Notes under the pieces: generated by a model
Database searches by the model: none
Told to the model about the DNA's origin: nothing
What the model saw: the letters and a program-made list of their open reading frames with translations, nothing else
Origin: Candidatus Parcubacteria bacterium
Lineage (GTDB): Bacteria > Patescibacteriota > Patescibacteriia > CAIXNZ01
Assembly: GCA_026395685.1 (NCBI GenBank)
Contig: JAPLYG010000013.1
Coordinates: 387 to 64,386, forward strand
Direction of reading: 5' to 3'
DNA: 64,000 bases
Program-made: the position numbers and the translations under genes
Part shown: positions 1 to 60,292 of the stretch, in pieces
Position numbering within the stretch: position 1 is the first letter of the stretch
Layout of the letters: each line of letters begins with the position of its first letter

Positions 1-3000
1 CATTGGCAATTTAAACATTCATTACCTGTGCTGCAGGCGCTATTATCGCAATTTTCTCCGGCTTCTACTATGCTATTGCCGCAAACCGATTGTTTCGGCG
101 TAACTGGTGGGATTACTGGAGGTATAACTTCTGAACTGACTAAATTGCTGGTTGAATTTGTTTTTAAACTGGTTATATTTGAACCGCTGACAATTGCCTG
201 ATTGGTAATGGTCTGGCCTTCGCTGCCTGTATTAACTTTGGCTTTAAAGGTAATATTTGCGCTTTCATTTATTCCTAATGCACCCACATTAAACGTTAAG
301 TTATTGCCTGTATTTGCTACTGCTACATTATTTACCTTAGAACTGCCGGATACGTATGTTAAATGGCTGTTTAATACATCTGTTACTATTATTCCTGCAG
401 CAGCGGCTGTGCCGTTATTTGTCAGATCTATGCGGTAGCTTAAAATATCATCCACATCTGCCGAACCGCTTTGCGCATAAGGTGCGCTTTGCGCTGAACT
501 AAAATGATTGAGGCCCAAAAGTCCGCCCATCATTACAAATAGAACTAAAGCTTTCAAAACTCCGGCAGCTAAAATTCCCTGCAAAGAAGCTTTGCTGATG
601 CTATGCATTTTCTTGTGTTTGGCATATGACACCTGGCTATATACTCCGTTATTATTTTGCACTGCAAGAGCTTCATAAACATGCTGCGGTTTTTGAAAAA
701 TCAAACTGTCAATTATGGCCAAAGCCATACTTAAGTTGTAATCTTTACGCAGATGCTTGACTGTGCTGACAATACCGATTATAAAAAATATTCCCAAGAT
801 CAATAACGCAATATTTAAAAGCCAGGATAAGCCGTTTAAGACATATCTTTGATTATTATTTAAATCTATACTGGCAAAGGCTGTATTAAACAAAGTAAAT
901 CCCCAATTCTTCGCCAGATTTACAGCCACGCCCTTAGTAGCTACAATATTTGGCTTAATAGCTGCTGGTGCTGGCTGACCATTTCCTGCTCCTAAATCCG
1001 TTTCTACTCCATCGCCGTTTCTGGCTTTGGCTGCCAGATTATATGGGTCACTGCTGGTTAAAGCTATTTGCACGGCCGGGACTGGCTTGCCAATGACTGC
1101 TATGCCGGCTGCTCCTCCCCAGGCTTCATAGGTTTGCCAGCTTTCCACATCGCTAAAATTACCATCTGACTGCAGATACTTGCCCGTGGTTATTTCCTTG
1201 ATTGCATATTCGGTATTCGCCGGATTTCCGTCATTGGGATCCAGTTTTAGATTTAATATTCCTGAGCTTAAAGGTGCTATTATTACCTGCTTTGGTATAT
1301 TGGCTAGAGTATAGCAGCTGACTAAACCGGTAAATGACTCTTCCGCAGCTATATAGGCGCTGACTTTACTGATATATTCAGTATTTGTAGTTAAGCCAGC
1401 TTCGTTAATCAGCCTGCAGCTAGCAGCTGCTCCGCCAGCATAATTGCATAAATGAGTAGCATCAGTTGCCACTTCTTTGATCAAATAAGCATTTGAAGCT
1501 AAAACGCCATAAAGGCGAAATCCTATTTCATTTGTGGAATTATCATTGAAAGTCCAGTCCAGGCTGGAATTACTTATTGGCTGACAGCTTAAATTTGTCG
1601 CTGGCATAACATTATAGCCAAGGCCGCCTTCCGAAGAAGTATCATCATTTGCAATAGTACCGACTCCCTGACCATGACCAGCTAGAATTGTGGCATTCTC
1701 AGGGCTAGAAAGATTTACATAAAATGTTTCAGTTAATTCAGGATCAGTATCGCCATTAACCTCAACTTTAATCGTTTTGGTGGTTTCTCCGGGATTAAAT
1801 ATCAGCATATCCTGCGGTAACGCAACATAATCATTATCAGCTACTGTTGCCGTTCCGTCGACAACATCATATAAAACCGTAGTTTGCATCCCGGATACAG
1901 GTGAAAGCGTGACAGTAAAATTAAAATTTCGCTTACCCGAATCTCTTTCCAGTAAAGAAACATCATTTATGGACAGCGAAGGCATGGCATCAGGCGGAGG
2001 AGATTCAGTAATATTGACATCTAAAGACCCTATCCCGTTGTAATTTGGATCTGAACTTGTCATTGTGCCCCAAACCTTGCCAATATGCGGTGATGCTTCA
2101 TACATTGCGTCATCTACAGCAGTAATAATAATTTCCTGATCAGTCATCCCGTTTATTGGAGTAAATGTAAGGCTGACAGGCAATACGCTAGTCTGTCCAT
2201 CAGGAGTACTAAAATCAATAATTACGTCAGATGACGGAAGAGAGGTCAATCTAATAAATATATTATCCGAAGACGCGGTTGTTTCATCCACATCTGTCGT
2301 TCCAAATGGAGGTGGTGTCTGAGTGACAATCACGCCCGCCGTATCATTATCAGTTATATTAACAACTACATTTGGAGTGGCAACGCCATTATTCATAAAT
2401 ACAGCGGCGGGACCATTGTAATTCGGATCAGCGCTTGCTGCCGTATGAGTTATTGTTCCTGTATGCGCGCCTTCCACATAAAAATCATCAACGGCAGACA
2501 CTATTATTTCCTGAGCTTCATAATAATCTAGCCGTGAAAATATTACCTGAGCTAAATCTGTTGTCACCTGCCCATCAGCAATAAGAGATACCGTAACGCC
2601 GACATCGACGGACGGCTGTTGTCTTAAATACAAATTATAAGTATCAGTTGCCCCGCCTTCAGTAACATTTGTAGAGCCTTCAGTTTCAGCTATGATTATC
2701 TCAAAATTACTGATTAAATTATTATTAAACTTTACAAAAGCCGTTAACCCGGTCGCATCCCCCCCGCCTGCAAACTCATCCTGGTTAATATCGGCGCCAT
2801 AATTAGTTTCTCTTTCACTTTTTGTCATATCAACCAGATAATTTACATCAACTGGATCCATAAACCTGTCATTATTCAAATCGCCCATTCTTCCCGCGTA
2901 AAGCGGATTACTCATCAAAGTGTTTACATCTACAATATTAACGATAATACTAGGGATAAATATACCGCCATCATATAAAGATAAAGGATCAGCGCAACTA

Positions 3001-4889
3001 GAACTAAAACTAATATTTTCCTGGACAGTACCTTCAATAATCGAGTCATCTGGTGCTGTCACAGTTACGGTTTGCGGGGTAGCCCAATTAGCGCTGGTAA
3101 ATGTCAATGAAGATGAACTCAAAGCAATCTGCGTACTATGGCTGATATTTATAGTTACATTACCCGTAGGCAATGTTTCCAAAACAACACTAAAAGAATC
3201 ATCAGCCGCAATTCCTTCTTTGACTTCAGTCCGTCCCGGCGTAGCGCCCCCAGATTCATCAACAGTCACACCAGCCTGATCATTATCTGCGACTATTACA
3301 TCCATATTAGGAGCTAGTGAACCGTCATAATCCCCATCTCCGACACTCGTTACAGTATGAGTGATAGTACTAGTCAATTGACCTTCTGCAGTTCCGTCAA
3401 TAGGAGCAGTTATTGTTATTATTTGCGGTGTATTCCAATTTAAAGTGGTAAAGGTAATAAAGCCTCCGCTTAAAATTGGATTTAGCAGGCTATCAGTTAA
3501 ATCAATTCCTGTAGCAGAATCATCATAAGTAAAAAAGACTTTCACATCAGCTGTCGGCGCCGAAGCTAATACCACGCTATAAGAATCTGCTAATCCACCT
3601 TCACGCACAAAGGTATTACCGTTTGTAGGCGTGATTATGACGCCGCTGCGATAAACAGAAACGCTATTTCCGCTGTAAGATTTGAAGTTGAGCAGGTAAA
3701 TATTCTCATACTTATTTATACTGACAAAATCTAATTTGTTATCATTATCAAAGTCAGCTGCCGCTAAATTAATCGGACCCGGAAGAGTATTTAAAGCAGG
3801 CGCTGCAGTAAATGTAAAATTATTATTGCCATGAAATATTTTTATGGCATTATCTGCATAGCTGCTGACTGCCAAATCAACGCCAGCTATATTATCAAAA
3901 TTTCCGGATATAACCCTGGTGCTTTTCTCACCTATCGGATACGATGTCAACCGCTCAGTAAAAGTAAAAGAATTCAAGCCATTATTTTCATAAATTCTAA
4001 GTCGGCTTGCGGTAGCAGTAAAACTCACATCAATCCCCGCCAAGTCAATATCAGTATCGCCATCAAAATCACCGGCCGCAATAAAATCAATATTGCCAGA
4101 TATACCAACACCCGGAGCAAAAGTTCCATCGCCATTATTTTCTAATACTGATAAAGCTGCGGTATCGGCCGGGGCACTGCTCGAGACAACCAAATCATTA
4201 TCTCCATCACCGTCAAAATCAGCGCTAACAATCTGAAGCGGACTCCTGTCAACAGCATAATCCACTGCGGCGGCAAAAGTTCCATCGCCATTATTTAATA
4301 AAACTGATATGGAATCTGAACCGTTATACGGCTTTGTATTATTATAACTATTGGCTACCACCAAATCAAAAGATGCATTTGCATCCAATCTTGTGGCTAT
4401 AATGCCGGTCAGTCCTCTAAGCCCTAACCCTGTCGTATAGCTATCTCCTGGTGTAAATGTAAATACTCCACTGCCATCATTTCGCAAGATGACTATAGTA
4501 TCCGTAGAATAATTAGAGACTGCCAAATCAATATCAGCATCGACATCAAAATCAGCAGCGGTAATTGAATTTGTTCCTTCGCCGACAGCATCATAATTTA
4601 CTGCAGGCAAGAAGGCACCATGACCGTCATTTAATAAAATAGAAACTTGAGCTACTCTGTAATTAACCACAGCCAGATCATTATAGCCGTCACCGTTAAA
4701 ATCAGCTGTTGCTGCCTGGCGCGGATCATCAAGCACCAAATAATTTTCCGGCGCTAAATAGGGATAGGCATTAGAAGTTTTCAAAAAACTCAAACATAAA
4801 AAAAGAATGGCCAAAATAGCCAAACGCCAAGCTGGCCTAAATGTCAGTAATTTTAAGCCGATAATTCTATTTTTAAAATTTGATTTCAT
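1..4889 (-). CDS. Giant cell-surface adhesin-like protein, 3' end runs off the window (at least 1629 codons present). It has FG-GAP/VCBS-like repeats, tandem beta-sandwich domains including Calx-beta-like ones, a DUF11-like region, one TM segment and a C-terminal Cys-rich CGNxxxExGExCD...C.NCQC module.
   Basis: Manual minus-strand translation from the ATG at 4889-4887 (MKSNFKNRIIGLKLLTF...) stays open to position 1. Frame re-checked at about 4200, 2940, 1000 and 1-60. Motifs seen: ADFNGDGYNDLAV, FDGDGDNDLVV, ...TVADNDYVALPQDMLIFNPGETTKTIKVEVNGDTDPELTETFYVNLS. Absent from the ORF track because there is no stop in the window. Confidence 0.7.
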   Translation of the reverse strand, partial: MKSNFKNRIIGLKLLTFRPAWRLAILAILFLCLSFLKTSNAYPYLAPENYLVLDDPRQAATADFNGDGYNDLAVVNYRVAQVSILLNDGHGAFLPAVNYDAVGEGTNSITAADFDVDADIDLAVSNYSTDTIVILRNDGSGVFTFTPGDSYTTGLGLRGLTGIIATRLDANASFDLVVANSYNNTKPYNGSDSISVLLNNGDGTFAAAVDYAVDRSPLQIVSADFDGDGDNDLVVSSSAPADTAALSVLENNGDGTFAPGVGISGNIDFIAAGDFDGDTDIDLAGIDVSFTATASRLRIYENNGLNSFTFTERLTSYPIGEKSTRVISGNFDNIAGVDLAVSSYADNAIKIFHGNNNFTFTAAPALNTLPGPINLAAADFDNDNKLDFVSINKYENIYLLNFKSYSGNSVSVYRSGVIITPTNGNTFVREGGLADSYSVVLASAPTADVKVFFTYDDSATGIDLTDSLLNPILSGGFITFTTLNWNTPQIITITAPIDGTAEGQLTSTITHTVTSVGDGDYDGSLAPNMDVIVADNDQAGVTVDESGGATPGRTEVKEGIAADDSFSVVLETLPTGNVTINISHSTQIALSSSSLTFTSANWATPQTVTVTAPDDSIIEGTVQENISFSSSCADPLSLYDGGIFIPSIIVNIVDVNTLMSNPLYAGRMGDLNNDRFMDPVDVNYLVDMTKSERETNYGADINQDEFAGGGDATGLTAFVKFNNNLISNFEIIIAETEGSTNVTEGGATDTYNLYLRQQPSVDVGVTVSLIADGQVTTDLAQVIFSRLDYYEAQEIIVSAVDDFYVEGAHTGTITHTAASADPNYNGPAAVFMNNGVATPNVVVNITDNDTAGVIVTQTPPPFGTTDVDETTASSDNIFIRLTSLPSSDVIIDFSTPDGQTSVLPVSLTFTPINGMTDQEIIITAVDDAMYEASPHIGKVWGTMTSSDPNYNGIGSLDVNITESPPPDAMPSLSINDVSLLERDSGKRNFNFTVTLSPVSGMQTTVLYDVVDGTATVADNDYVALPQDMLIFNPGETTKTIKVEVNGDTDPELTETFYVNLSSPENATILAGHGQGVGTIANDDTSSEGGLGYNVMPATNLSCQPISNSSLDWTFNDNSTNEIGFRLYGVLASNAYLIKEVATDATHLCNYAGGAAASCRLINEAGLTTNTEYISKVSAYIAAEESFTGLVSCYTLANIPKQVIIAPLSSGILNLKLDPNDGNPANTEYAIKEITTGKYLQSDGNFSDVESWQTYEAWGGAAGIAVIGKPVPAVQIALTSSDPYNLAAKARNGDGVETDLGAGNGQPAPAAIKPNIVATKGVAVNLAKNWGFTLFNTAFASIDLNNNQRYVLNGLSWLLNIALLILGIFFIIGIVSTVKHLRKDYNLSMALAIIDSLIFQKPQHVYEALAVQNNNGVYSQVSYAKHKKMHSISKASLQGILAAGVLKALVLFVMMGGLLGLNHFSSAQSAPYAQSGSADVDDILSYRIDLTNNGTAAAAGIIVTDVLNSHLTYVSGSSKVNNVAVANTGNNLTFNVGALGINESANITFKAKVNTGSEGQTITNQAIVSGSNITSLKTNSTSNLVSSEVIPPVIPPVTPKQSVCGNSIVEAGENCDNSACSTGNECLNCQ

Positions 4890-4999
4890 ATTACAACAAA
4901 TAAAATAGCAAATTTAAAAAAATGCCTCGAGTTTTGCTTTTATCTCCTGATTTAATTATATCAAATTTTATCTTACTTTAGCAGTCAAACTGGGGATAA

Positions 5000-5317
5000 C
5001 TAATAGCGGAAATTGCCCCTCATTTTTTCCTTATATTTTTTGATTTGGCGTTCCAGTTCCTCCCTGGCCTCATTTATAGCCACATACAAATCATCTCTGG
5101 TGGCTTCAGCCCGTAAAAGATGTTTCTGCGGCACTTCCAGATTTATTTCCGCCCGAAAAACATTGCCTTTTTGATGATGTTTAGTGGTTAAGCCGACGTC
5201 GACTCTGGCGATTAACGCCTGTTCAAAAAATTTTTCCAGACTGCCGACTTTTTCATTGACATAGTCTTTGAGAGCGTCGGTAAGCTCCAAATTTGTTCCT
5301 TTGATCTCGATTTGCAT
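5000..5317 (-). CDS. hpf: Ribosome hibernation promoting factor / RaiA family (short form)
   Basis: N-terminus MQIEIKGTNLELTDALKDYVNEKV is typical of HPF/YfiA. About 105 aa. Confidence 0.75.
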   Translation of the reverse strand: MQIEIKGTNLELTDALKDYVNEKVGSLEKFFEQALIARVDVGLTTKHHQKGNVFRAEINLEVPQKHLLRAEATRDDLYVAINEAREELERQIKKYKEKMRGNFRY

Positions 5318-9891: not shown

Positions 9892-10923
9892 TTATTTATA
9901 TGTTAAATATTCAGCTTCACTCAGGACTCTGGGATCCCAATCTACATAACCGCTGACTTCCTTTGCCTGCCGTATACTGCGGAAACGGTCATTTATTGTA
10001 TAAATTGAACCGGGATCAATTTTTGATATTGCCAAACCATTGCTGAAAACAACTGAATTTACGTCTATTTTTCTTAAAACTCCGCCCCAATCAATTAAGT
10101 ATAAAGTGGAATCAGCGGCAAATTTTACCACAGTGCCCCGCAATGGAGCTAAATCAGTATCCGGCAAAATAATATCTTCACAACGGCAATTTTCACAAGC
10201 TTGATTTTCCGAGCATCCCGCCAGATCACATTGTTCAGTTGCTTCAATTTTTCCATTGCCGCAAATTGGCGCAATAATTACCTGCCGGCATTGGCAATTA
10301 TTACAGACTTGATTTTCCGCACATCCCTGTAAATCGCACGCTTCGCCGGTTTCAATCACTCCATTACCGCAAATTGAAACTGCTTCAATTTGGCACAAGC
10401 CGGAACAGCCATCGCCATTTTCACGATTACCATCATCACAGCTTTCACTGCCCTCAATTTCTCCATTGCCGCAAATTGGCTCAATACTTACCTGCTGGCA
10501 TTGGCAATTATTACAGACCTGGTTTTCAGCACATCCTTGTACATCGCACTGTTCATTGAATTCAATCAAGCCATTGCCGCAAATCAACGCCTGTGGCGGC
10601 TTATTTTCGTTTATTACAATTTTTGGAGGACGAGTCAAAAGGTAATACGTTCCCAGAATTATCAGAGAAAAAACAAACAGTAAAATTATAATAATAACTA
10701 TTTTCTTTTTGAATAAATACGATTTTAATGAAGTAACCAGATTGACTTCGCCTAGCGGCTCCTCACTAAATTTCTCTGCCGGTTTTTGCGCTGGCTCAGG
10801 CTTTTTCTCACTGATTACTTTTTCAGAAGTAATATTTTCCAAAACCGGCTCATGCATTTGTACCGGCACTTTTGGGGGCGGCATTTTTTTATCCGGACCT
10901 TTGCCTAAAAAATCTATGGCCAT
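9892..10923 (-). CDS. Membrane-anchored protein with four tandem myxo-type Cys-rich repeats (ICGNGxIExxExCDxxGCxENQxCNNCQC)
   Basis: Four copies of the CGNG...CD...C..C.NC.C module. One copy reads CGNGEIEGSESCDDGNRENGDGCSGLC, matching the Myxococcus cysteine-rich repeat pattern. N-terminal TM helix. The DNA also shows about 120-bp tandem repeats across 10190-10570. Confidence 0.65.
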   Translation of the reverse strand: MAIDFLGKGPDKKMPPPKVPVQMHEPVLENITSEKVISEKKPEPAQKPAEKFSEEPLGEVNLVTSLKSYLFKKKIVIIIILLFVFSLIILGTYYLLTRPPKIVINENKPPQALICGNGLIEFNEQCDVQGCAENQVCNNCQCQQVSIEPICGNGEIEGSESCDDGNRENGDGCSGLCQIEAVSICGNGVIETGEACDLQGCAENQVCNNCQCRQVIIAPICGNGKIEATEQCDLAGCSENQACENCRCEDIILPDTDLAPLRGTVVKFAADSTLYLIDWGGVLRKIDVNSVVFSNGLAISKIDPGSIYTINDRFRSIRQAKEVSGYVDWDPRVLSEAEYLTYK

Positions 10924-10927
10924 AAAA

Positions 10928-12007
10928 TTAAATAATATCCCTCATCGCCAGACCCAAAGCTACTGCAAAACGGGGTCCGACTTCAGTCAAAACCGGACGC
11001 AATTCTTGTGGATAAATCACTCTTGCCCAAGGATCGCCGATATATGCGCGTAAATTCAGGACATTAGTTAAATATTTATCCAGATAATTACCGAGCAATG
11101 ATCCGCCTCCGGTTAAAATCACTTTGTCAAGTATTTTCTGCTGTCCCATCTGGTCATAATAAGTCTTCAGCAAATACTTGATTTCTGAAACTAAAGGCGC
11201 TAAAGCATCTTCCACCAGCTGAGGATAATTACTGAGATTCTCTTGCTGCATTAAAATTGCCATATCTAACTTATAATTTTCTGCTTCAGCAATTGTAATA
11301 TTTAAGGTATCGGCAATTTTCTTGGTAATTACGCCGCCGCCATAATTAATGGTTCTGTTTAAAAGCGGCATGGCATAATTGACAATTGATAAAGTCGTTA
11401 AATTCTCGCCGATATCTACTAATAAAATCAAAGATTTATCTGTACCGACCAAAGAACGCACTAAAGCAAAAGTTTCAATATCTAAATTTGTAAGCTGAAA
11501 ATTTGACTGCTTGAAAATATCCACATAAGTTTTAACAACTTCTAAAATAGAGGCGGTGACTAAATATCTGGCCACTGGAATTTTTGGGCCAGAATCAGGA
11601 TTTTCAATTTCTTCATCAACGATCAAATTGAAATCAAAAATTACTTCCTCTATCGGCCGGGGCATAATCTTTTTCAGCTCTTCTATTAATAAGGGCTTGA
11701 TCTTGGCCTTATTTTCCAAATCACGGCGCTGTAAGTTTGACAATTTAATCACTGTTGAAAAAACAGAAGAAATAGGCAGGGCAGCCGACGCAAAATTTGT
11801 CGTTACCTTTGCACGGTCAGCGACTTCTTTTAATAAAGTGCTTGTTAAATTTCTATTATTGATAAAGTCGCCTCTTAAAACATCACTGCGGGATTCCGTA
11901 TAACCATAAGTCACTAATTTTGGCTTGCCGGCTTCTACGGTCAACTCAACAATTTTGATGGAATCAGGCGACAAATCAACACCTAAATAACTATAGGGTT
12001 TTGCCAT
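10928..12007 (-). CDS. pilM: Type IV pilus assembly protein PilM (actin-like ATPase fold)
   Basis: N-terminus LGVDLSPDSIKIVEL and overall PilM-like length and motifs. Confidence 0.7.
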   Translation of the reverse strand: MAKPYSYLGVDLSPDSIKIVELTVEAGKPKLVTYGYTESRSDVLRGDFINNRNLTSTLLKEVADRAKVTTNFASAALPISSVFSTVIKLSNLQRRDLENKAKIKPLLIEELKKIMPRPIEEVIFDFNLIVDEEIENPDSGPKIPVARYLVTASILEVVKTYVDIFKQSNFQLTNLDIETFALVRSLVGTDKSLILLVDIGENLTTLSIVNYAMPLLNRTINYGGGVITKKIADTLNITIAEAENYKLDMAILMQQENLSNYPQLVEDALAPLVSEIKYLLKTYYDQMGQQKILDKVILTGGGSLLGNYLDKYLTNVLNLRAYIGDPWARVIYPQELRPVLTEVGPRFAVALGLAMRDII

Positions 12008-13073: not shown

Positions 13074-13222
13074 AAAAATTTTCAGAATTCAATAATACTT
13101 CCCAAAGAAAAAATTGCCCTAATCAGGCAATCAACCTCCCTTTCTATGTATAATTTTAGCAAAAATTTTATATTTAACCAAATTTACCTTGTTGATAAAT
13201 AATCAAAGGATACCCCGCCACC

Positions 13223-13251
13223 TTGACAAAATGATATAAATATGCTATTAT
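13223..13251 (+). promoter_or_regulatory. Sigma70-type promoter TTGACA-N17-TATTAT
   Basis: TTGACA 13223-13228, 17-nt spacer, TATTAT 13246-13251. Sits 60 nt upstream of the 13313 ORF. Confidence 0.6.
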
Positions 13252-13312
13252 TATATATCCTGGAAAATGTTCCCATTTAACCAATAACAACCTTTTAACA
13301 AAGGAGCAAAAG

Positions 13313-13651
13313 ATGCACGGCTTTACTGATTCTATCGTCATTATCCAGGCAGCCGGAACCGGCAGCTACACTACCGGAATCGGATTCAACTTCCTGACCA
13401 TTTTCAGCCCCGGGCTGAAAGAACCGGCGCAGATACGGGTGCAGGATCTCAAGCTCTTCGTGAGCAACGAAATTGGCAGGGGCACTTCCTTGCCCTGCTA
13501 CAGCGCCGCACACCAGATGATCGGCTTTTCCTCGGAAGAGTCGCTCGTCTACTACCTGAAGCTCTGGAGAATCGGTCTGGATCTAATCCAACCCGAAACA
13601 AACCAGGCGCCGAAGGTAAACCGGGCCGCGACCGCGATGGTCACCGCCTAA
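13313..13651 (+). CDS. Hypothetical protein, GC-rich cassette gene (about 55% GC)
   Basis: AAAGGAG Shine-Dalgarno 8 nt before the ATG. Composition differs strongly from neighbours. No recognisable domain. Confidence 0.5.
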   Translation: MHGFTDSIVIIQAAGTGSYTTGIGFNFLTIFSPGLKEPAQIRVQDLKLFVSNEIGRGTSLPCYSAAHQMIGFSSEESLVYYLKLWRIGLDLIQPETNQAPKVNRAATAMVTA

Positions 13652-13706
13652 ACGACAACCAACGCCACAACCACAAAAGGGAGCATTAGTATGAACCATT
13701 GAATTT

Positions 13707-13750
13707 TGGGGGCAATCCGCATATAGCGAGAGGCCCCCCTTTTTAATTTG
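13707..13750 (+). terminator. GC hairpin GGGGGC...GCCCCC followed by a T-run
   Basis: ttttgggggcaatccgcatatagcgagaggccccccttttta. Confidence 0.4.
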
Positions 13751-13841
13751 GTAATTTGTTAACTGGTTTTGATATGCGCATATTTATTTGTTTAAAATTA
13801 GCCAAAAAATTATATATATTCGCTTAAATTAATCCAAGATA

Positions 13842-13870
13842 TTGACAAAAATGACGCAATATGCTATAAT
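13842..13870 (+). promoter_or_regulatory. Sigma70 consensus promoter TTGACA-N17-TATAAT
   Basis: Exact consensus hexamers with a 17-nt spacer. About 90 nt upstream of the 13963 ORF. Confidence 0.65.
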
Positions 13871-13962
13871 AATATATTGAAATTGATTATATTAGGAATT
13901 CAATCTTGTAGTTTGTCAACACAAAACAACCTGATTGATTACAGGAAAAAAGGAGATAAGCC

Positions 13963-14292
13963 ATGTGTTTCAACGATTGCTGGGTGGTTGTTTCCGTCCG
14001 CGACGAAGGCGACTACTATGCCTTCGAGTTCATGGGACGGCCGGGTCTGTCAGTCAGAAAAGAAGACTGTCAGATCGTGATCAACACCGAGCTCGGGGAC
14101 AAGATCCTGTTCTATCCCGAGCGCATCCCGGAGATCTGGGCCAACGACATCTGGGCGCTGATGGATGTGTTTGACGGGATCAAAATCCCGGACAAGACCC
14201 ATCCCTGCACCGGCTGCCACGGCACCAAGTGTTCCGTGGTCTGCCGTAACGACCAGCCCCCTCCCTCAGCCGCGGCCGCGTTCGCGTGCTGA
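13963..14292 (+). CDS. Hypothetical Cys-rich protein, GC-rich cassette gene
   Basis: AAAGGAGA Shine-Dalgarno. C-terminal PCTGCHGTKCSVVC cluster. Overlapping ORFs in other frames are likely artefacts of GC-rich DNA. Confidence 0.5.
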   Translation: MCFNDCWVVVSVRDEGDYYAFEFMGRPGLSVRKEDCQIVINTELGDKILFYPERIPEIWANDIWALMDVFDGIKIPDKTHPCTGCHGTKCSVVCRNDQPPPSAAAAFAC

Positions 14293-14302
14293 AAAAAAGA
14301 CC

Positions 14303-14335
14303 CCGCCAAAGGACATTGATCCGGCGGGGCTTTTT
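14303..14335 (+). terminator. Intrinsic terminator CCCCGCC-loop-GGCGGGG followed by CTTTTT
   Basis: gaccccgccaaaggacattgatccggcggggcttttt. Confidence 0.55.
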
Positions 14336-14385
14336 AAAACCACGGATTTTGCTCACTGATAACACTGATGTTTGGCGTCATCGGG

Positions 14386-14419
14386 ATATCAGTGTAATCT
14401 GTGAATAAAATCAGTGGTT
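14386..14419 (+). repeat. Repeat family X, copy A (ATATCAGTGTAATCTGTGAATAAAATCAGTGGTT), built from ATCWGTG heptamers
   Basis: Matches the reverse complement of 16415-16449 and 16868-16889. Preceded by two CACTGAT heptamers at 14355-14368. Confidence 0.6.
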
Positions 14420-14430
14420 CTGTTCTTCCT

Positions 14431-16197
14431 TTATAGAATCTTCTTAGCCAAATCAGACTTCAATTCCACATCCTCAACTTTAACCTTCCTCAAATCAACC
14501 AGCCTCAATTCAAGCTTTCTTGTCCCATTAAATTCATTCAAATTAATTTCGCAGACAATATCAACCAAATCCTCATACCTTATTTCACTGATCAAATTCC
14601 CCATACCAAAACCGATTGCTTCAAAACTTTTGACCATATTGTCATGCTTTAAAAATAATTTCAGATGCTTATTATCGCCGCCGACGGTACGAACATTTTC
14701 CACCCTTAAATTTTTGACTAAAAATAAAGGCTTGGGATTTGACGCGCCAAAAGGTTCAAATTTTTCCAGCTGTTCAAATAAGTCCCAATTCAAATCTTGC
14801 AAATTTAATTCCGCCTCAATCTCCATTCTTTCTGACAAATCTTTGCCCTGCAGCTCCTGAAGGGCAATTTCAGTTATACGTTTTTTAAAATCAGCCAGAT
14901 ACTTTCGGCTCTTTAAGGTAAAGCCGGCTGCTTGAGCATGACCGCCATAAATTTTAAAACAATCAGCCACCTTATCAAGAGCTTTAATCATATTAAATTC
15001 CGGAATCGAGCGCCCTGACCCGGCAACTTTGGCAAGTGACTTGGTTATTATTAAAATCGGTCGATTGAATTTATCTTTAATCTTGCCGGCAGCTAAGCCG
15101 ATAATTCCCAAAGGCCAATTACTTCCTTCGGCGATAATCAGTAGCTGTTTATCTATATCCGCAACTTCCTTTTTGACTTCTTCCATGATTTTATCAGTCA
15201 TGGTTTGTCTTTTGCGGTTGCTCTGCTCCAGATTATCAACTAAAGTTATTGCTTCCTGCTTATCTTCAGTCAATAAAAGCTCATATGCCGAATTAGCATG
15301 ATCCATGCGACCAGCCGCATTAATGCGCGGTCCCAGAACATAACCGATATTTTCCGAATTCATTAATTCTTTTTCCGTCACCGGCCAGACTCCGGCTTTT
15401 TCCGCCAGCAGTTTCAAGCCGATTCTTTTTGTTTTATTTAATACAACTAAGCCATATTTAACCAGGGCTCTATTTTCACCGAATAATGGCATAACGTCAG
15501 TAACTGTACCAATAGCCACCAGATCAAGCAGCCATTTTTCATAACCGGCCGAAAAAATACCCTTTTTATCCCTGGCAACAATCGCTTGCGCTAATTTATA
15601 GGCGACACCGACTCCGGCTAAATCATAAAAAGGATAATTGCAGACCTTAATTTTAGGATTAATTATGGCAAAAGCTTTAGGTAATTCTAAAGGCTCTGCG
15701 TGATGGTCAGTTATAATCACATCAATCCCCTTTTCATTGGCCAGGTCAATTTCCAAAACATTGCTGATACCGCAATCAACTGTAATAATCAGTTTTACTT
15801 TTTGTTTAGCTAAATATTTGATTGTTTTTTTATTAAGCCCATAGCCTTCCTTTTCCCGATGAGGAATATACACAATAAAATCAGCGCCCAATGTTTTTAA
15901 TACATTTGCTACCACCACGCTGCTAGTCACGCCGTCAGCATCATAATCGCCATGAATGGCGATTTTTTCTTTATCGGCAACGGCCTGATAAATTCTGACC
16001 ACGGCTTTTTCCATATCAGGAAACAAAAAAGGGTCAAGAACATCTTGGCCATAATCCGGGGTCAAAAACGCGTCAATTTGCTTTTGAGTTGTTAAACCGC
16101 GGTTAAAAAGTAACTGCAAAATCACACCCGCTATTTCCGGAAAACTCTTTTTTAATTCCAAACCTACCGGCTCTTTCAGAACCCACTTTTTTGACAT
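14431..16197 (-). CDS. recJ: Single-stranded-DNA-specific exonuclease RecJ
   Basis: DHH family motifs IAIHGDYDADGVTS and VIITDHH plus a DHHA1-like C-terminus. 588 aa. Confidence 0.85.
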   Translation of the reverse strand: MSKKWVLKEPVGLELKKSFPEIAGVILQLLFNRGLTTQKQIDAFLTPDYGQDVLDPFLFPDMEKAVVRIYQAVADKEKIAIHGDYDADGVTSSVVVANVLKTLGADFIVYIPHREKEGYGLNKKTIKYLAKQKVKLIITVDCGISNVLEIDLANEKGIDVIITDHHAEPLELPKAFAIINPKIKVCNYPFYDLAGVGVAYKLAQAIVARDKKGIFSAGYEKWLLDLVAIGTVTDVMPLFGENRALVKYGLVVLNKTKRIGLKLLAEKAGVWPVTEKELMNSENIGYVLGPRINAAGRMDHANSAYELLLTEDKQEAITLVDNLEQSNRKRQTMTDKIMEEVKKEVADIDKQLLIIAEGSNWPLGIIGLAAGKIKDKFNRPILIITKSLAKVAGSGRSIPEFNMIKALDKVADCFKIYGGHAQAAGFTLKSRKYLADFKKRITEIALQELQGKDLSERMEIEAELNLQDLNWDLFEQLEKFEPFGASNPKPLFLVKNLRVENVRTVGGDNKHLKLFLKHDNMVKSFEAIGFGMGNLISEIRYEDLVDIVCEINLNEFNGTRKLELRLVDLRKVKVEDVELKSDLAKKIL

Positions 16198-16414: not shown

Positions 16415-16449
16415 AACCACAGATTTAAACTCACAGATTACACTGATAT
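16415..16449 (-). repeat. Repeat family X, copy B (inverted)
   Basis: Reverse complement CATATCAGTGTAATCTGTGAGTTTAAATCTGTGGTT aligns almost base-for-base with copy A. Confidence 0.6.
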
Positions 16450-16455
16450 GCTGAA

Positions 16456-16827
16456 TTAATTTATAATTCTTTTAATTTTAACACCATCCTTATTAAATAT
16501 TATCAATAAACCCAGCCTATATTTATTTGCCTTCAGATAACTCAGCAGCTGCTTAATATCCTTTGTATAAAAATCATTGGCAATCTTTAATTCCACTACA
16601 ACCTTATCATCAATAATAAAATCCAAATAATACTTGCCTATTAATCTATCTTTATAATATATCCTTACAGGAAATTCCGCTATAAAGTTAATGCCCTGAT
16701 CATTAAATTCTTCGATATATCCTCTCTTATAAATAATCTCCCGATATCCAAAACCGATTTCATTATACACCTTATACGAAATTCCGATAATTTTCTCTGT
16801 TAAGTCCTCATATAAATATTCCCCCAT
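16456..16827 (-). CDS. GxxExxY family small protein (PD-(D/E)xK-like fold)
   Basis: 123-aa protein with GEYLYEDL ... YREIIYKRGY. Its length and G..E..Y motif match what I recall of the GxxExxY family. Bracketed by family X repeat copies B and C. Confidence 0.6.
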   Translation of the reverse strand: MGEYLYEDLTEKIIGISYKVYNEIGFGYREIIYKRGYIEEFNDQGINFIAEFPVRIYYKDRLIGKYYLDFIIDDKVVVELKIANDFYTKDIKQLLSYLKANKYRLGLLIIFNKDGVKIKRIIN

Positions 16828-24543: not shown

Positions 24544-24703
24544 AAGCCGGGTAAGAAAAAGTTTTTAAAGATAAATCATTATCTTGACAAACCCTGATTA
24601 AGTTGATACTTTTAAAAGTCAGATGGGGCTGAGATACCATAGCCGCATAATTGTTCATTTTACACAACCTAAACCTTGGTTAAACAAAAACGGAGGCCTG
24701 CTC

Positions 24704-25138
24704 ATGGACGCGAAAAAGATGGAAGAATTATTGCATCAATATCCCTTTCTTTGGGGAGTATCAAATCATTGGGATCCGGAAAGTACTGAAATCTTAGTCA
24801 CGACAATTGATGAAGAATTTCTTAAACTTCAGTGCTACGACATCCGTAATCATGTGTTTTTTAAAACTTTGAATCCTCACTGGCTACTTGGAGTTGATCT
24901 GGCAAGGTATGAGCGTGCAACTCTGGCTACCGGCATAAAAGGCACTTTAAAATGGTTCAAAGAAAAAGTGAAGTTAATGCACTTTGATTGTATTATTCTA
25001 CAAACTACCGGCAGAATCTTCAAATATACTATTTTTCTTCCTGACAAGGAAAAAACATTAGCCCAGATGATTGAAGATTCATTAGATATGTCATTTATGG
25101 CATCGCATGATGACCAAGATTCGCCAGAAAATACTTAA
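24704..25138 (+). CDS. Hypothetical protein (plus-strand cassette gene with GGAGG Shine-Dalgarno)
   Basis: Start refined to MDAKKMEELL, preceded by cggaggcctgctc. Own promoter candidate at 24584-24616 and terminator at 25151-25180. Confidence 0.45.
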   Translation: MDAKKMEELLHQYPFLWGVSNHWDPESTEILVTTIDEEFLKLQCYDIRNHVFFKTLNPHWLLGVDLARYERATLATGIKGTLKWFKEKVKLMHFDCIILQTTGRIFKYTIFLPDKEKTLAQMIEDSLDMSFMASHDDQDSPENT

Positions 25139-37595: not shown

Positions 37596-37886
37596 ATGAA
37601 TGCACCTGCTGACTTGTATGAAATCATGGGTATTACCCCTAACGCATCGCTGGCTGAGATAAAAAAAGCCTACCGTGCATTAGCTTTACAGAACCATCCC
37701 GACCATAATCCGTCAGATGATGCCAAAACAAAGTGGGCTCAGATCCAAAAGGCTTATGAAATACTGGCCGATCCAGTCAAAAAACTGGAATATGATCAGG
37801 GCAAAAAAAGCGCAATTACAACCAAACCAAGGGACTTTTTACGAGACCTTTGGGATATAATGGTTAACCGAGGACTTAAAAGTTAA
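37596..37886 (+). CDS. J-domain (DnaJ N-terminal domain) protein, stand-alone
   Basis: [34 protein letters not shown] ... [16 protein letters not shown] with HPD tripeptide. Shine-Dalgarno GAAAGGAGA. Confidence 0.8.
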
Positions 37887-37911
37887 GCCTCAAAACACAA
37901 GGGAGGACCAC

Positions 37912-38406
37912 ATGATTATCAATTTCCCGAAAGATATGGGTGAAACCGTTCAACTCTGCGCCGACGCGATCGATAGCTACACTGACCCTGAAGATCCCAA
38001 AGCCCTTTCCCGTACTTGCGAAAAATTTTTCCTGGAGCTGAAAGACCAGGCTGATCTTCTACTCGAAGAACAGTCTTACGGTGTCATGACGCTTTTGGGC
38101 AAAATCAGGCTCATTAACAAAACTCAGGCAATCTTACTTTTCGAAAAGGGCTATTTGCCTTCCTGGGAGGACATCACGGTTGCGGCTTCGCGCCAGCAGC
38201 TGGTTAATGACCTCCGGACCAAAAACGACACTGTCGCCAGACAGATCATAATGATTGCCTTTTGTCTGTCCTGCGGTAGCGATATCCGCTGCGCCGGCAA
38301 AACAATCTTACGGACCTCTGGCGTTCCCAGCAACACCGAAACCCCGGTCAAAGAAGTCGGGGAAGAAAACGAAGGAGAAGAAGATGGATCAGAAGAAACC
38401 GACTGA
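37912..38406 (+). CDS. Hypothetical protein with an acidic C-terminus
   Basis: Shine-Dalgarno AAGGGAGGA. GC-rich. C-terminal EVGEENEGEEDGSEETD. Confidence 0.5.
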   Translation: MIINFPKDMGETVQLCADAIDSYTDPEDPKALSRTCEKFFLELKDQADLLLEEQSYGVMTLLGKIRLINKTQAILLFEKGYLPSWEDITVAASRQQLVNDLRTKNDTVARQIIMIAFCLSCGSDIRCAGKTILRTSGVPSNTETPVKEVGEENEGEEDGSEETD

Positions 38407-39301
38407 TCTCGTTACTTTACCTGCCGAAGAAAGAGCGAATGCGCTCAAAGTTATCACTGCCCAGTCAGGCAAACACGGCGAAAACGAGATTGAAAAACTG
38501 GCTGACACCGAAGGCGATCACTCTGCCATTGCGGTTTTGTTACGGCTCAATCCCCTGGAAATCGGCCGCCTGATCAAAACAGGCGATGTCACGGTTCCCA
38601 CCATGACCGCCATTCTGGCCAATCCTCAACAGATTGTCGAGATGCTGGCCATGGATCCGATGGCCTGGGAAAAAGAGCTCAATACGGAAAATCTTTTCGA
38701 ACTGCAGAATGAAGCGCTGGGCGTGATTTCCCAAATTCTGGCCAATACCCTTGATCGGGCCAAACAGCTTGAGATTCTAGAGGCAATCTGCGCCAACAAA
38801 AACGCTTTTTTCTATCTGTGCTTTCCCTTCATCGGGATTAACACGGACCTGGATGAAAACGAAGGCGTCAAAGGAGTCTTCCGAGAATCCAAGATTGCCA
38901 CCGAAGATCGAATTCGGGAAAAAATCCATGCTGAAACCGAACGAGTCAAGGCTGAGCTTGAAGAAAATAAAGATGAGGAGGATGAGGAGGACGACTTTGA
39001 GCCCCCTCCCAGTATCGAGACCATCGTAAGTGACGTCATCGCCAATGAACGCCAGCGAGAGCCAGTAATCGACCTCGCGGAATTCGAAGCGCGTCAAGAT
39101 CTGCTGGAGCTGATCCATGAAATCGCTCCGGAAGTTCTTACCGAAATGATGGAATTAATCTGCGAGACCGAGGATCAGGCCGGTTCCTGGGAAGGCGTCA
39201 TCAGCCAAATCAAGGAATTGCGCACCAGTGCGGAAAAACTTTTGGGACAGGAACAGGATGACGAAGAATATGTCTCCATGTTCGATCCCGAAAAGAAATA
39301 A
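38384..39301 (+). CDS. Hypothetical acidic protein
   Basis: Start refined to MDQKKPTDL after GAAGGAGAAG, overlapping the upstream stop. The EEDEEDDFEPPPS segment is acidic. Confidence 0.5.
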   Translation: MDQKKPTDLVTLPAEERANALKVITAQSGKHGENEIEKLADTEGDHSAIAVLLRLNPLEIGRLIKTGDVTVPTMTAILANPQQIVEMLAMDPMAWEKELNTENLFELQNEALGVISQILANTLDRAKQLEILEAICANKNAFFYLCFPFIGINTDLDENEGVKGVFRESKIATEDRIREKIHAETERVKAELEENKDEEDEEDDFEPPPSIETIVSDVIANERQREPVIDLAEFEARQDLLELIHEIAPEVLTEMMELICETEDQAGSWEGVISQIKELRTSAEKLLGQEQDDEEYVSMFDPEKK

Positions 39302-39320
39302 CAACCACAAGGAGGTTCCA

Positions 39321-41006
39321 ATGGCGGGTACAGCGATTGTTCGCCACGACTCCCGCCTGCTCCTCTTTCAAGCCCTCGGACATACACAGTTTGGGGGCTT
39401 ATTTTTTGACCAGGTCAAAAAAGAGGGCGCAGGCATGTCCTACGAATTTGCTAAAAAGTACTACACTGTCACTTCTGAACCATATCTGACTCGGGCTACT
39501 TACTGCGTTTTGGGCATTTGCAATCTGGGTCTGGTGCTGGCCAGCAAAAATCAGCTGGACATAGCTCTGAGCCTGATACAGAACAAAAAGCTGTTTGACC
39601 TTTTCCAGCTCGGCTGGGAAAAAATCAGCCAGCTGGTTAAGATGAAAAATTACTGCGACCAAAAAGAACTTGGCGACCAGACCTGGAACATTGAAAAAGA
39701 ATTGGCTGAAAGATTCAGCGCCGAACCAGGCAAAAACTGGATTGGTCTGGATGAATATACTAAAGCCAAGGATGAATATGAGAAAAATTATTTTACTGCT
39801 TTACTGCGGCAACACTTCAGACAGCACTTCATTGCCAAAGCCCGTGATCAGTATTCCTATGAACTGGGCGACTCTTACGTGAATAACAGCTTGTTTACCT
39901 CACTTCTGTTCAACGATAGAATGCATGCACCACTCAAACCTGAGGAATTTGCAGACCTGTACAACTGGTTTAAAAATCCTCGGGTATTGAAAATCATGCG
40001 CCTTAAGCTGAAAGACTTCAGTAAAACACTTACACAAAAACAGCGTCCCTTCTTTTGGGCAGAAGTTGAAGACAGCTTAAATTCCGCGGCTTTTGCCAAA
40101 CTGGCACTTTATGCACAGCAAGGCGACGAAGAAAGAAGCCTGAAAATTTTCTACTCCCAGTTCTATGTGGAGGCAAATCCTGATAAGATTTCTCAGGCCC
40201 GCTATGAAAAAGCCAAAGCTGAGTATAAAAGCCCTCTAAAAAACTTTGAGGATCTGCAGCTCGAGCTGGACAGGCTGAAAGAAAACATGCCTGATATTTC
40301 TGACAAACTGGCGATCATTGATGTGGTCTTAGAGCCCAGATTTGTTCCCTTGCTAACCGCTGACGACCTGACAAACATCATGGCTGCGGATAAAATGCTG
40401 TGGCAGACAAAAATCTGCTGGCCCCTTGTCAATGATCGGGTTTTTCACATTCTGCTGAAGGATAAATCCACCCAAAAGTATACCGGCCTCATGTTGGAAG
40501 ACTTTTTGGGCAATCTGCAGACGTTCACGAACAAACACATTAAAAAGCTGATTGCCAAGCTGCAGATGATGAGCAACACTCAGCTTTATAATCTGTGCAA
40601 AGAATCTGCTGATATGCGCGACTTTTTACTCAAGCACATCCGCAGAGAGCCGAACATATATGCTGATTCAATTTCAGCTGCCGACACCAACATCCTTTTT
40701 ATCCCGCCTAATGAATGGCCGCACCTGTGGCAAGTTTTTTCCTTGGAAAGCGCTGAGTTCATGTTCAAAGAATTGCGGCGTTACTACCGGGAACTAAATA
40801 TCCCCGCAGACCAGGCAGAACAAATGTTCTTCGAACGGGTAAAAATTGTTTGCCGCTTTTACCAGCGCGACAAAAAAAACCCGAAGAAAGATTATCCGAC
40901 CTGTGAAGCTCCGTATTACAATGCGGACCTGAAAAAGGCAGTGGCTCATACCCTGTCTCCCAAAAAATTTAAAGCCTTCAGCCAGAAACTGGCTGATCTA
41001 GCCTAA
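39321..41006 (+). CDS. Hypothetical large, mainly alpha-helical protein (562 aa)
   Basis: Start refined to MAGTAIVRHD after CAAGGAGG. No recognisable domain. Confidence 0.5.
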   Translation: MAGTAIVRHDSRLLLFQALGHTQFGGLFFDQVKKEGAGMSYEFAKKYYTVTSEPYLTRATYCVLGICNLGLVLASKNQLDIALSLIQNKKLFDLFQLGWEKISQLVKMKNYCDQKELGDQTWNIEKELAERFSAEPGKNWIGLDEYTKAKDEYEKNYFTALLRQHFRQHFIAKARDQYSYELGDSYVNNSLFTSLLFNDRMHAPLKPEEFADLYNWFKNPRVLKIMRLKLKDFSKTLTQKQRPFFWAEVEDSLNSAAFAKLALYAQQGDEERSLKIFYSQFYVEANPDKISQARYEKAKAEYKSPLKNFEDLQLELDRLKENMPDISDKLAIIDVVLEPRFVPLLTADDLTNIMAADKMLWQTKICWPLVNDRVFHILLKDKSTQKYTGLMLEDFLGNLQTFTNKHIKKLIAKLQMMSNTQLYNLCKESADMRDFLLKHIRREPNIYADSISAADTNILFIPPNEWPHLWQVFSLESAEFMFKELRRYYRELNIPADQAEQMFFERVKIVCRFYQRDKKNPKKDYPTCEAPYYNADLKKAVAHTLSPKKFKAFSQKLADLA

Positions 41007-48816: not shown

Positions 48817-48877
48817 ATGCTATTAGCTGTTCTTTCCCAAAATGCTAGATTTCATTCCAAACAATGAGGAGGATACT

Positions 48878-59884: not shown

Positions 59885-60292
59885 TCAGCACTTAACTTGT
59901 AAGTCAGCTGGCTGGCGACGATTGCCCATCCAAAAGCCGATGGCCATGAAAAAGACCTGGGGCGCAGCCATGACGATCATCAGATCATACCATTGGTACG
60001 GCATCTGCTGGCAGAACCTGGCCGTCAATACTGCTGTCGACGCGGCGATGATAACCATCACACACCCGAATCCCAAATCCCAAGCCGCGGGCAGGCTAAG
60101 GCCGAGCAGGAAAGCGGCGACCGTGAACATGCCCAAAGCCGTTCCCACATCCAGCCAGGGATGCTGAGCCAATAGTCCTCCTTTGGTGAAGGCAATGACC
60201 TGAAACGAAAAGAGCCACAAACAAATACCAAGTAACCGCGAATTTTTCAACATTCTCCCTCCTCCTTGCCCAGAACCTATGCGCAAACGCAT
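59885..60292 (-). CDS. GC-rich small membrane protein
   Basis: Four predicted TM helices. About 55% GC. Confidence 0.5.
   Translation of the reverse strand: MRLRIGSGQGGGRMLKNSRLLGICLWLFSFQVIAFTKGGLLAQHPWLDVGTALGMFTVAAFLLGLSLPAAWDLGFGCVMVIIAASTAVLTARFCQQMPYQWYDLMIVMAAPQVFFMAIGFWMGNRRQPADLQVKC

Follow-up and report, generated by a model that had tools for sequence, protein, structure and literature searches.

A variable islet of small, GC-rich orphan genes between the PilZ gene and recJ in a clade of Parcubacteria

Phage morons are self-contained units of one gene each, with a strong promoter and terminator of their own and a composition unlike their surroundings, and compositionally atypical, patchily present accessory genes make up the genomic islands that are numerous in Patescibacteria, where transfer within the phylum is common (PMC12455944). 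Here, we describe a pair of short genes, ORF1 and ORF2 (open reading frames 1 and 2), that recalls both kinds of element. The pair lies between a PilZ gene and recJ in a stretch of 64,000 nucleotides (nt), hereafter the window, of contig JAPLYG010000013.1 from a Candidatus Parcubacteria bacterium (assembly GCA_026395685.1). The two genes are best filed under a known kind of feature, the small accessory islet of orphan genes with atypical composition, and the best explanation, which we consider probable, is that of an old, variable, clade-restricted islet and not of a fresh foreign insertion. Two properties go beyond the routine for such a feature, namely, that the islet keeps its position and its modular build from species to species, and that its GC-rich, C-rich codon usage persists, with a GC content at third codon positions (GC3) of 0.7-0.8, inside host-like regulatory DNA.

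As in phage morons, each of the two genes has, judged by sequence, its own promoter and terminator. Unlike morons, the genes show no prophage context, no phage homologue and no PHROG match; their neighbours are core genes, and they occupy a fixed chromosomal slot that is conserved across species. With the atypical islets and islands described in Patescibacteria (PMC12455944), the locus shares an atypical GC content, patchy presence, accessory genes and, in relatives, a VIT-VWA surface-type neighbour, but it spans only 1.2 kb, has no mobility genes, tRNA or repeats at its borders, and is GC-rich only in its coding parts, the regulatory DNA being native-looking and conserved between species. The literature on Patescibacteria islands (PMC12455944) does not mention ORF1 or ORF2. 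Integron gene cassettes likewise contain one gene each and form arrays in a single orientation; here, however, each cassette has its own promoter, and integron cassettes were ruled out as neither an attC-like site nor an integrase was seen.

Two GC-rich genes with their own expression signals

The flanking genes, identified with Pfam, are PilZ (PF07238; 12585-13073, minus strand) and recJ (14431-16197, minus strand; domains DHH, DHHA1 and RecJ_OB), in agreement with the placement of the pair in the initial annotation, which had been made from the sequence alone. The features of the locus are listed below, with positions counted from the first letter of the window and protein lengths in amino acids (aa); families A and B are introduced in the next section.

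13153-13167, plus strand: upstream box ATTTTAGCAAAAATT (consensus AAATT(T)TAGCCAAA), some 55 nt upstream of the -35 element of promoter P1
13223-13251, plus strand: promoter P1, TTGACA-17-TATTAT, with a TGn extended -10 element
13300-13306, plus strand: Shine-Dalgarno site AAAGGAG, 6 nt before the ORF1 ATG, read from the sequence
13313-13651, plus strand: ORF1 (NTZ49_03570), 112 aa, family A
13691-13702, plus strand: mini-ORF of three codons (ATG AAC CAT TGA), preceded by AAGGGAG, in the conserved 3' region of cassette 1
13708-13745, plus strand: ORF1 intrinsic terminator, GGGGGC/GCCCCC stem, conserved 19-nt loop with an inner hairpin, U5, -19 kcal/mol
13795-13809, plus strand: second copy of the upstream box, AAATTAGCCAAAAAA, same consensus
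13842-13870, plus strand: promoter P2, TTGACA-17-TATAAT, TGn, 12 of 12 consensus positions
13950-13955, plus strand: Shine-Dalgarno site AAGGAG, 7 nt before the ORF2 ATG
13963-14292, plus strand: ORF2 (NTZ49_03575), 109 aa, family B
14294-14337, plus strand: ORF2 intrinsic terminator, CCCCGCC/GGCGGGG stem, U5, -22 kcal/mol, z -4.95

ORF1 and ORF2, with a GC content of 0.560 and 0.591, respectively, are the two GC maxima of the window (mean 0.392, standard deviation 0.050, in 330-nt windows), and the highest point lies inside ORF2. The GC content of ORF1 is reached by 0.45% of the 330-nt windows and that of ORF2 by 0.07%. Thus, the two plus-strand ORFs of about 55% GC in AT-rich surroundings that had been noted by eye are borne out by computation (56.0% and 59.1% versus 39.2%). 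The intergenic DNA between and around the genes has a GC content of 0.25-0.32, so that the compositional steps fall at the start and stop codons. Codon usage sets the two genes apart as well: the GC content at first, second and third codon positions (GC1, GC2 and GC3) is 0.51, 0.43 and 0.73 in ORF1 and 0.55, 0.44 and 0.79 in ORF2, compared with a GC2 of about 0.32 elsewhere and a GC3 of about 0.37 in the neighbouring genes and 0.24-0.46 in most other genes of the window, four further atypical genes having a GC3 of 0.50-0.62. C-ending codons carry most of the excess, with a C content at third positions (C3) of 0.45 in ORF1 and 0.50 in ORF2 versus 0.14-0.17 in the neighbours. The ratio C/(C+T) is 0.80 in the cassette genes versus 0.29-0.35 in the background, and just 0.49 in the hibernation-factor gene at 5000-5317, which is likely highly expressed. 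In both base composition and codon usage, the pair therefore deviates in the manner of a genomic island. Overlapping ORFs in other frames, also pointed out initially, are present and are a usual by-product of high GC.

From its sequence signals, each gene appears to be a transcription unit of its own, with a near-consensus sigma-70 promoter, a leader (55-90 nt in the two units), a ribosome-binding site and a terminator. The description of the cassettes in the initial annotation held up in each of these respects: TTGACA-N17-TAT(A/T)AT precedes both ORFs, AAGGAG (the GGAG Shine-Dalgarno site of that description) lies 6-7 nt from each ATG, GC hairpins of -19 and -22 kcal/mol followed by U5 end the units, and the genes look stand-alone and highly expressible. 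A simple terminator scan had missed both hairpins solely because their loops exceed its length limit. On both strands of the 64 kb, seven sites match at least 11 of the 12 promoter positions (2.6 expected), P1 and P2 among them, and just four of the seven, again including P1 and P2, have the TGn extended -10 element. A 20-nt stretch spanning the -10 element (repeat D1) is 90% identical between P1 and P2, and the 86-nt leader of ORF2 contains a long hairpin. The AAATTTAGCCAAA box, with the consensus AAATT(T)TAGCCAAA, is found 30-55 nt upstream of six cassette promoters from the window and the related loci L050 and L002; its enrichment inside the window is modest (5 matches versus 1.8 expected).

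A GC spike in an AT-rich genome classically means a structured non-coding RNA, and as with such RNAs, the spikes here lie between a promoter and a terminator. ORF1 and ORF2 are, however, real protein-coding genes, as three-base periodicity, ribosome-binding sites and conservation at the amino acid level argue for their translation. ORF1 is 39% identical over 95 aa (tblastn E 9e-22) to the gene at the equivalent position in L002 (L002_A), and ORF2 is 35-40% identical to three proteins, P0003, P0004 and P0005 (E 2e-14 to 8e-4; HMMER, 1.84 billion proteins). If the segments were structured RNAs with incidental ORFs, the folding of the predicted transcripts, which is more stable than that of shuffles (z -3.6 and -4.9), would be expected, as would the slightly greater stability of the coding sequences of six family members compared with synonymous-codon shuffles (mean z -1.8). 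However, the whole-transcript scores are inflated by the mixture of AT-rich leaders with GC-rich ORFs, and 30 control genes have a mean z of -0.58 (standard deviation 1.31), leaving a coding-sequence excess of only about 2 sigma. Furthermore, codon-position periodicity is strong, GC3 is far above GC2, each ORF has a ribosome-binding site and an ATG, amino acids are conserved while nucleotides have diverged, and there is no Rfam match at gathering thresholds and nothing beyond noise at E values up to 1. Conserved structure free of a coding signal, the mark of such RNAs, is thus not what was found at ORF1 and ORF2, and we regard this explanation as highly improbable. Selection for mRNA structure, tried as a candidate, is only weakly favoured by the same comparison (z -1.8 against the control value of -0.58).

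Two further sequences adjoin the transcription units. Directly upstream of the -35 element of P1, AAAGGATACCCCGCCA (13205-13220) resembles AAAAAAGACCCCGCCA (14293-14308), the left arm of an ORF2-type terminator, with no matching right arm, and may be the scar of a lost upstream cassette or a chance likeness. The stretch from the ORF2 terminator to the recJ stop codon contains, at 14336-14421, an 86-nt long, imperfect hairpin (-38.5 kcal/mol, z -8.3), possibly the recJ terminator. One arm of this hairpin recurs at 16417-16447, on the other side of recJ and just after a gene of the PD-(D/E)XK nuclease family, so that recJ is bracketed by related sequences.

The islet in related genomes

A word-indexed search of 5.8 billion proteins returned only ORF1 and ORF2 themselves, annotated as hypothetical proteins of a Candidatus Parcubacteria metagenome-assembled genome (MAG), and an exhaustive HMMER search of 1.84 billion representative proteins yielded only three relatives of ORF2 (P0003, P0004 and P0005). 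The loci of the nearest genomes were fetched via RecJ (67-84% identical to RecJ of the window); L002 contains a further relative of ORF2 (L002_B, 10700-11008). The small proteins fall into four families, A-D, with ORF1 in A and ORF2 in B, which may, judging from sequence comparisons, be of common origin. The links between the families are weak (BLASTP of ORF1 versus ORF2, E 9e-5 as a single comparison; hhalign E values of 5e-4 for A-C, 0.038 for A-B, 0.033 for B-D and 0.1 for B-C), so that a single A-D superfamily is only weakly supported and the four are kept apart. Among 15 family members, including ORF1 and ORF2, there was no Pfam, NCBIfam or PADLOC match, and scans of ORF1, ORF2 and ten relatives that took in PHROGs as well gave no meaningful match. 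Sequence-profile searches of the PDB with families A, B and C returned nothing below E 0.01, and two scans of JGI metagenomes with alignments of families A and B found no further members; alignment A2, of five sequences, proved too divergent to be used in pattern searches. There is no paralogue of ORF1 or ORF2 elsewhere in the 64-kb window. Nor do the small proteins resemble, in sequence, the VIT-VWA protein, an 833-aa protein of the related loci or the other GC-rich genes of the window. BLAST and profile searches with both proteins, as initially suggested, thus recovered conserved relatives, and by sequence similarity families A-D are confined to a narrow clade of Parcubacteria, in which the relatives bear the labels Falkowbacteria, Buchananbacteria and Parcubacteria.

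All homologues with enough flanking sequence occupy the same PilZ/RNase H-recJ slot in related Parcubacteria. The family genes sit between type IV pilus, PilZ and RNase H genes and the 3' end of recJ, and point to recJ. The contents of the slot are as follows.

L050/L051 (466-kb contig): PilM, RNase H, PilZ, VIT-VWA, small genes, P0004, RecJ, LepA; in the slot of L050, VIT-VWA is followed by a 10-codon mini-ORF, a 102-aa A-like gene, an 81-aa C gene and P0004 (B)
L002: VIT-VWA, A (11988-11641), D (11339-11028), B (11008-10700), an unknown protein of 837 aa, recJ
L001: VIT-VWA, D, C, a protein of 833 aa, recJ
P0003 contig: RNase H, P0003, a 99-aa gene, a truncated gene on the opposite strand
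P0005 (821-bp contig): the end of the preceding gene bears the family A/C motif
L003, L042 and L004: a single C gene each, beside recJ
L005: recJ followed directly by RNase H, that is, an empty slot

The VIT-VWA gene of the relatives, absent from the window, lies at the following positions.

L050: 3808-6840
L001: 11667-13757
L002: 12431-13762

Across the relatives, the slot thus holds from zero to four A-D genes in varied combinations, often along with a GC-rich VIT-VWA gene and the unknown 833-aa protein, and the window, with one A gene and one B gene, has a minimal version. A comparison of presence and absence, also proposed at the outset, showed the patchy distribution typical of a genomic island, L005 being empty and the gene sets differing among L001-L004, L042 and L050. 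In more distant genomes of the Candidate Phyla Radiation, the arrangement was not found.

Eight cassette promoters from five genomes can be aligned as TTGACAAA...ATATGcTATaaT. The ORF1 terminator and the terminator after the 102-aa gene of L050 have a common 19-nt loop and a compensatory change from G:C to A:U in the stem, and the CCCCGC...GCGGGG terminator that ends the array is common to the window, L050, L052, L002, L001 and L003. The aligned promoters and homologous terminators indicate that whole promoter-gene-terminator modules were duplicated and inherited. Between species, the AT-rich regulatory parts are better conserved than the proteins.

The recurrence of this architecture also bears on whether foreign GC-rich fragments were spliced into a Parcubacteria contig during assembly or binning, as might be suspected from the sharp jump in composition in a metagenome-assembled genome. 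The same architecture is present in separate assemblies of different samples (JGI 3300037810, Logan SRR18595301, a Lac Pavin MAG and others), and the junctions coincide with functional boundaries, namely, those of promoters, ribosome-binding sites and terminators. Because independent assemblies show the same architecture, a chimera is excluded, and we give an artefact of this kind practically no credence.

Some small elements of the cassettes stand out in their own right. The 3' region of cassette 1 (13675-13745 in the window, 7440-7515 in L050) is far more conserved between species than the protein; it holds the Shine-Dalgarno-like AAGGGAG, the three-codon ORF (ATG-N6-TGA) and the terminator, and at the matching place in L050 the mini-ORF reads ATG AGG AAC TGA. 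At L050 6898-7030, a TTGACA-17-TATACT promoter and a ribosome-binding site drive just the 10-codon, Phe-rich mini-ORF MYGFFSGFVF, whose start resembles that of ORF1 (MHGF...) and behind which lies a hairpin akin to the ORF1 terminator. This mini-ORF is either a truncated remnant of a family A gene or a leader peptide. In two of the more distant relatives, L003 (4260-4400, minus strand) and L042 (8256-8400, minus strand), the leaders of the family C genes contain a short upstream ORF of about 30 codons and are conserved at the nucleotide level (TATCGG.T.TGGAGCGG.TTTAA...), which could reflect a small upstream ORF or a structured leader.

Age and origin of the islet

Among the independently assembled relatives in which both genes have syntenic homologues, RecJ is 80-84% identical. 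Orthologues of RecJ from the window, L001, L002 and L050 share 80-87% identity, with an identity at four-fold sites of 0.38-0.51 versus 0.27 expected from composition, which corresponds to a synonymous divergence of roughly one substitution per site (Jukes-Cantor estimate). Given this divergence, the islet predates several species-level splits and, by that argument, a recent insertion is excluded.

Several properties of the pair are nevertheless those of a gene set recently acquired by this genome from a higher-GC donor, be it the host bacterium or a mobile element: GC, GC3 and GC2 are strongly atypical, each gene has an autonomous promoter and terminator, the slot is variable and, in L005, empty, and many genomic islands have been reported for Patescibacteria (PMC12455944). 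Yet, at least six independently assembled relatives have homologues in this slot, with order and orientation kept and with regulatory DNA that is homologous, AT-rich and native-looking, the GC-richness ends exactly at the start and stop codons, and there is no homologue outside the clade in 1.84-5.8 billion proteins. No match was obtained in 50,697 phage records (apart from one chance hit, E 0.6), in 72,556 plasmids or in two IMG/VR scans. The 64-kb window contains no tRNA, rRNA or other Rfam match, and there is no integrase and no convincing flanking direct repeat at the borders of the islet. Thus, neither the mobility signatures at the borders nor the identifiable donor lineage by which islands are recognised were found. 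We consider an acquisition of this kind improbable, its "recent" part being largely refuted, and the suggestion in the initial annotation of moron-like genes from mobile elements found no backing in the empty phage, plasmid and IMG/VR searches or in the lack of an integrase.

The companion suggestion of a higher-GC donor fared differently in its two parts. The VIT-VWA protein of the relatives resembles the proteobacterial family TIGR03788 (E 3e-80, below the family cut-off), which makes it plausible that the islet ancestrally came from a higher-GC gene pool. A donor of the small genes, in contrast, is not visible among the 1.84 + 5.8 billion proteins, the homologues being Parcubacteria loci or short contigs with host-like GC.

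According to our preferred explanation, an old accessory islet restricted to this clade, the islet would have come into the lineage prior to the divergence of the sampled species, probably out of a higher-GC gene pool. Duplication of whole promoter-gene-terminator modules, loss of genes and rapid divergence of the proteins would since have remodelled it. The GC3 of the small genes is 0.70-0.83 in families A and B and 0.56-0.64 in families C and D, compared with 0.36-0.41 in the host recJ; in L003, L042 and L004, it is 0.37-0.45 for family C and 0.22-0.28 for recJ. Such GC-rich, C-ending codon usage that has not decayed to the host level might be due to slow amelioration, to exchange of islets or to selection on codons or mRNA. 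In a simple two-state relaxation estimate, a divergence like that seen in the core genes would be expected to cut the GC3 offset to about half, which fits the VIT-VWA gene (GC3 0.61).

Several observations weigh against this picture or parts of it. If the islet is old, slow amelioration alone can hardly explain the GC3 of 0.73-0.83 in the small genes. The VIT-VWA orthologues have a four-fold-site identity of 0.60-0.66 versus 0.46-0.50 for RecJ, yet are less similar as proteins; this lower divergence may mean that the islet was exchanged between lineages after the core split, or that synonymous sites are constrained. Families A and B are only weakly linked (BLASTP 9e-5, hhalign 0.038), and the two may not share a fold. 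AlphaFold2 modelled ORF2 with low confidence (predicted local distance difference test, pLDDT, of 43 from the single sequence and 53 from the five-sequence alignment), and a Foldseek comparison of the ORF2 model with the PDB gave no match at E 0.001 or better. Finally, ORF1 ends in -VTA and ORF2 in -FAC, not in -AA, so that the idea of C-terminal degrons, discussed below, rests on their relatives.

The locus carries a methodological lesson: a sharp GC anomaly combined with a private promoter and terminator mimics a fresh insertion, and synteny shows that the islet is older than several species.

Possible roles and other features of the window

The ORF1 protein is near-neutral and probably soluble, with an Ala-rich C-terminus (...RAATAMVTA), and the ORF2 protein is acidic (isoelectric point, pI, 4.7), with an Ala-rich tail (...SAAAAFAC); the pI in families B and C is 4.5-5.5. 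The family proteins contain no signal peptide, membrane segment or strongly hydrophobic stretch. Pilin-like N-termini were considered and rejected since no hydrophobic segment follows the G-F motif, and the suspected likenesses of family C to the KTSC domain and of ORF1 to cold-shock RNP motifs were not borne out by Pfam. The N-terminal domain of ORF2 is predicted, in models of low confidence, to be beta-rich, with five strands. The best-conserved block of family B is C-terminal, IP-x3-(H/K)PC-x2-C-x4-C-x3-C(R/T) (HPCxxCxxxxCxxxC in ORF2), and family D has the Cys motif PC-x3-C-x2-C-x3-C. The four-Cys motif C-x2-C-x4-C-x3-C occurs in ORF2, P0003, P0005 and L002_B, is not found in P0004 and matches no zinc-finger model; the simplest reading of the family B motif would be a small metal-binding knuckle, most likely for zinc.

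Alternatively, the Cys block could belong to a precursor of a ribosomally made, modified peptide, with a long leader and a core rich in Cys, Ser and Thr. ORF2-type genes are indeed small paralogues with strong expression signals, and the last 30 residues of ORF2 are rich in these three amino acids. The Cys block is, however, the most conserved part of the family and not the most variable, P0004 and family A do not have it, and no syntenic locus encodes a modifying enzyme; we hold this explanation to be very unlikely.

C-terminal -LAA and -AA are classic recognition signals of ClpXP. Flynn et al. reportedly described, in 2003, a ClpXP-type C-terminal degron with an ssrA-like -LAA or -AA end, in which Ala-Ala follows a non-polar residue. 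Ala-Ala C-termini are present in 6 of the 15 family members and in all four families (MALAA, LADAA, TQIAA, LANAA, LAQAA and SKAA), compared with none of 133 unrelated ORFs of at least 100 aa from the window and close loci (1 of 134 when one family member is counted). The combination of consensus promoters with degron-like tails would suggest soluble, cytosolic proteins that are abundant but short-lived, and the fast divergence, the variation in copy number and the neighbouring pilus and VIT-VWA genes would suggest a diversifying interaction role; the proteins might act as adaptors, regulators or antagonists where contact with a host, phage or competitor evolves rapidly. This functional reading of abundant, short-lived cytosolic proteins with an interaction role and metal binding in family B is an inference that we hold with low confidence.

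In the Candidate Phyla Radiation, genomes are small and lineage-specific genes are for the most part uncharacterised, and pilus genes such as those adjoining the islet are thought to mediate host contact. ORF1 and ORF2 belong to an array that keeps its position but is rapidly reshuffled, and their expression signals are very strong, which makes them reasonable candidates for abundant, lifestyle-related proteins. More speculatively still, families A-D might form an undescribed, clade-specific system of diversifying small proteins that are abundant, turned over through Ala-Ala marks and encoded by actively maintained GC-rich, C-rich codons. Selection on translation or on the stability of mRNA, or else repeated exchange of the islet among relatives, would then uphold their codon usage, which would not be a fading foreign trace, and the system would serve episymbiosis, in interactions with hosts, phages or competitors tied to the type IV pilus and the VIT-VWA surface genes.

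The same tails, together with the fast divergence and the variable islet, might also be read as a toxin-antitoxin-like or immunity-type two-protein module with one labile partner, the paralogue array reflecting an arms race. Like type II toxin-antitoxin pairs and arrays of orphan immunity genes, the islet has small adjacent genes, rapid divergence, paralogue arrays and possibly protease-labile tails, and A/C-type and B/D-type neighbours recur (A and B in the window, C and B in L050, D and B in L002, D and C in L001, and an A/C-like fragment and B in L052). However, the genes of the window are not bicistronic, a terminator and a second promoter separating ORF1 from ORF2, unlike some relatives with bicistronic pairs of small genes; the partners are mixed, with lone genes in L003, L042 and L004; and none of the 15 family members matches a toxin, antitoxin or defence model in Pfam, NCBIfam or PADLOC. 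Neither the co-transcribed, autoregulated operon nor the recognisable domains of type II systems are seen in the window, and we find such a module unlikely.

The initial annotation had grouped ORF1 and ORF2 with three further cassettes of the window into one family. These show no sequence similarity to the pair and are of different kinds.

24623-25138, plus strand: gene of the 24.7-kb cassette, GC content 0.38, thus not GC-rich, no strong promoter, no family match
37596-41006, plus strand: 37.5-kb cassette, a J-domain-only protein (PF00226) followed by AtcB-like and AtcC-like proteins
48842-50233, plus strand: gene of the 48.9-kb cassette, 463 aa, GC3 0.50, promoter TTGACA-16-TAAAAT with TGn, no family match

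Only the last of these has a promoter comparable to those of ORF1 and ORF2. The matches of the second cassette to the AtcB-like and AtcC-like models (NF047889, E 6e-16, and NF047890, E 3.5e-14) are both below the cut-offs; by its sequence matches, it is an atcJ/B/C-like cold-adaptation co-chaperone operon of moderate GC content (GC3 about 0.55).

A third GC-rich spot of the window (GC 0.54, GC3 0.62) is the gene at 59885-60292 (minus strand), which encodes a hydrophobic protein of about 120-135 aa with several membrane-spanning segments apparent by eye and has its own GGAGG ribosome-binding site and GC hairpin terminator; the protein has no family match and is unrelated to ORF1 and ORF2. Upstream of it, at 60437-60524, lies a GC-rich multi-branch element of about 90 nt, with a closing stem of 13-14 bp (GGGCGAAAAGGGC/GCCCTTTTCGCCC), a perfect 13-bp inner hairpin, a 6-bp hairpin and A/T runs on both sides. 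It folds with -55 to -58 kcal/mol (z -8 to -9) on either strand and belongs to no Rfam family, the best match being IS128 with E 0.049, far below the gathering score.

The PD-(D/E)XK nuclease family gene adjoining recJ (16456-16827, minus strand; PF13366, E 2e-30) also deviates in composition, in the opposite direction to ORF1 and ORF2 (GC 0.28, C3 0.06). A greedy ORF listing gave only three short ORFs (78-119 aa) in positions 1-5000, and the window probably starts inside a very long gene that runs off its edge.

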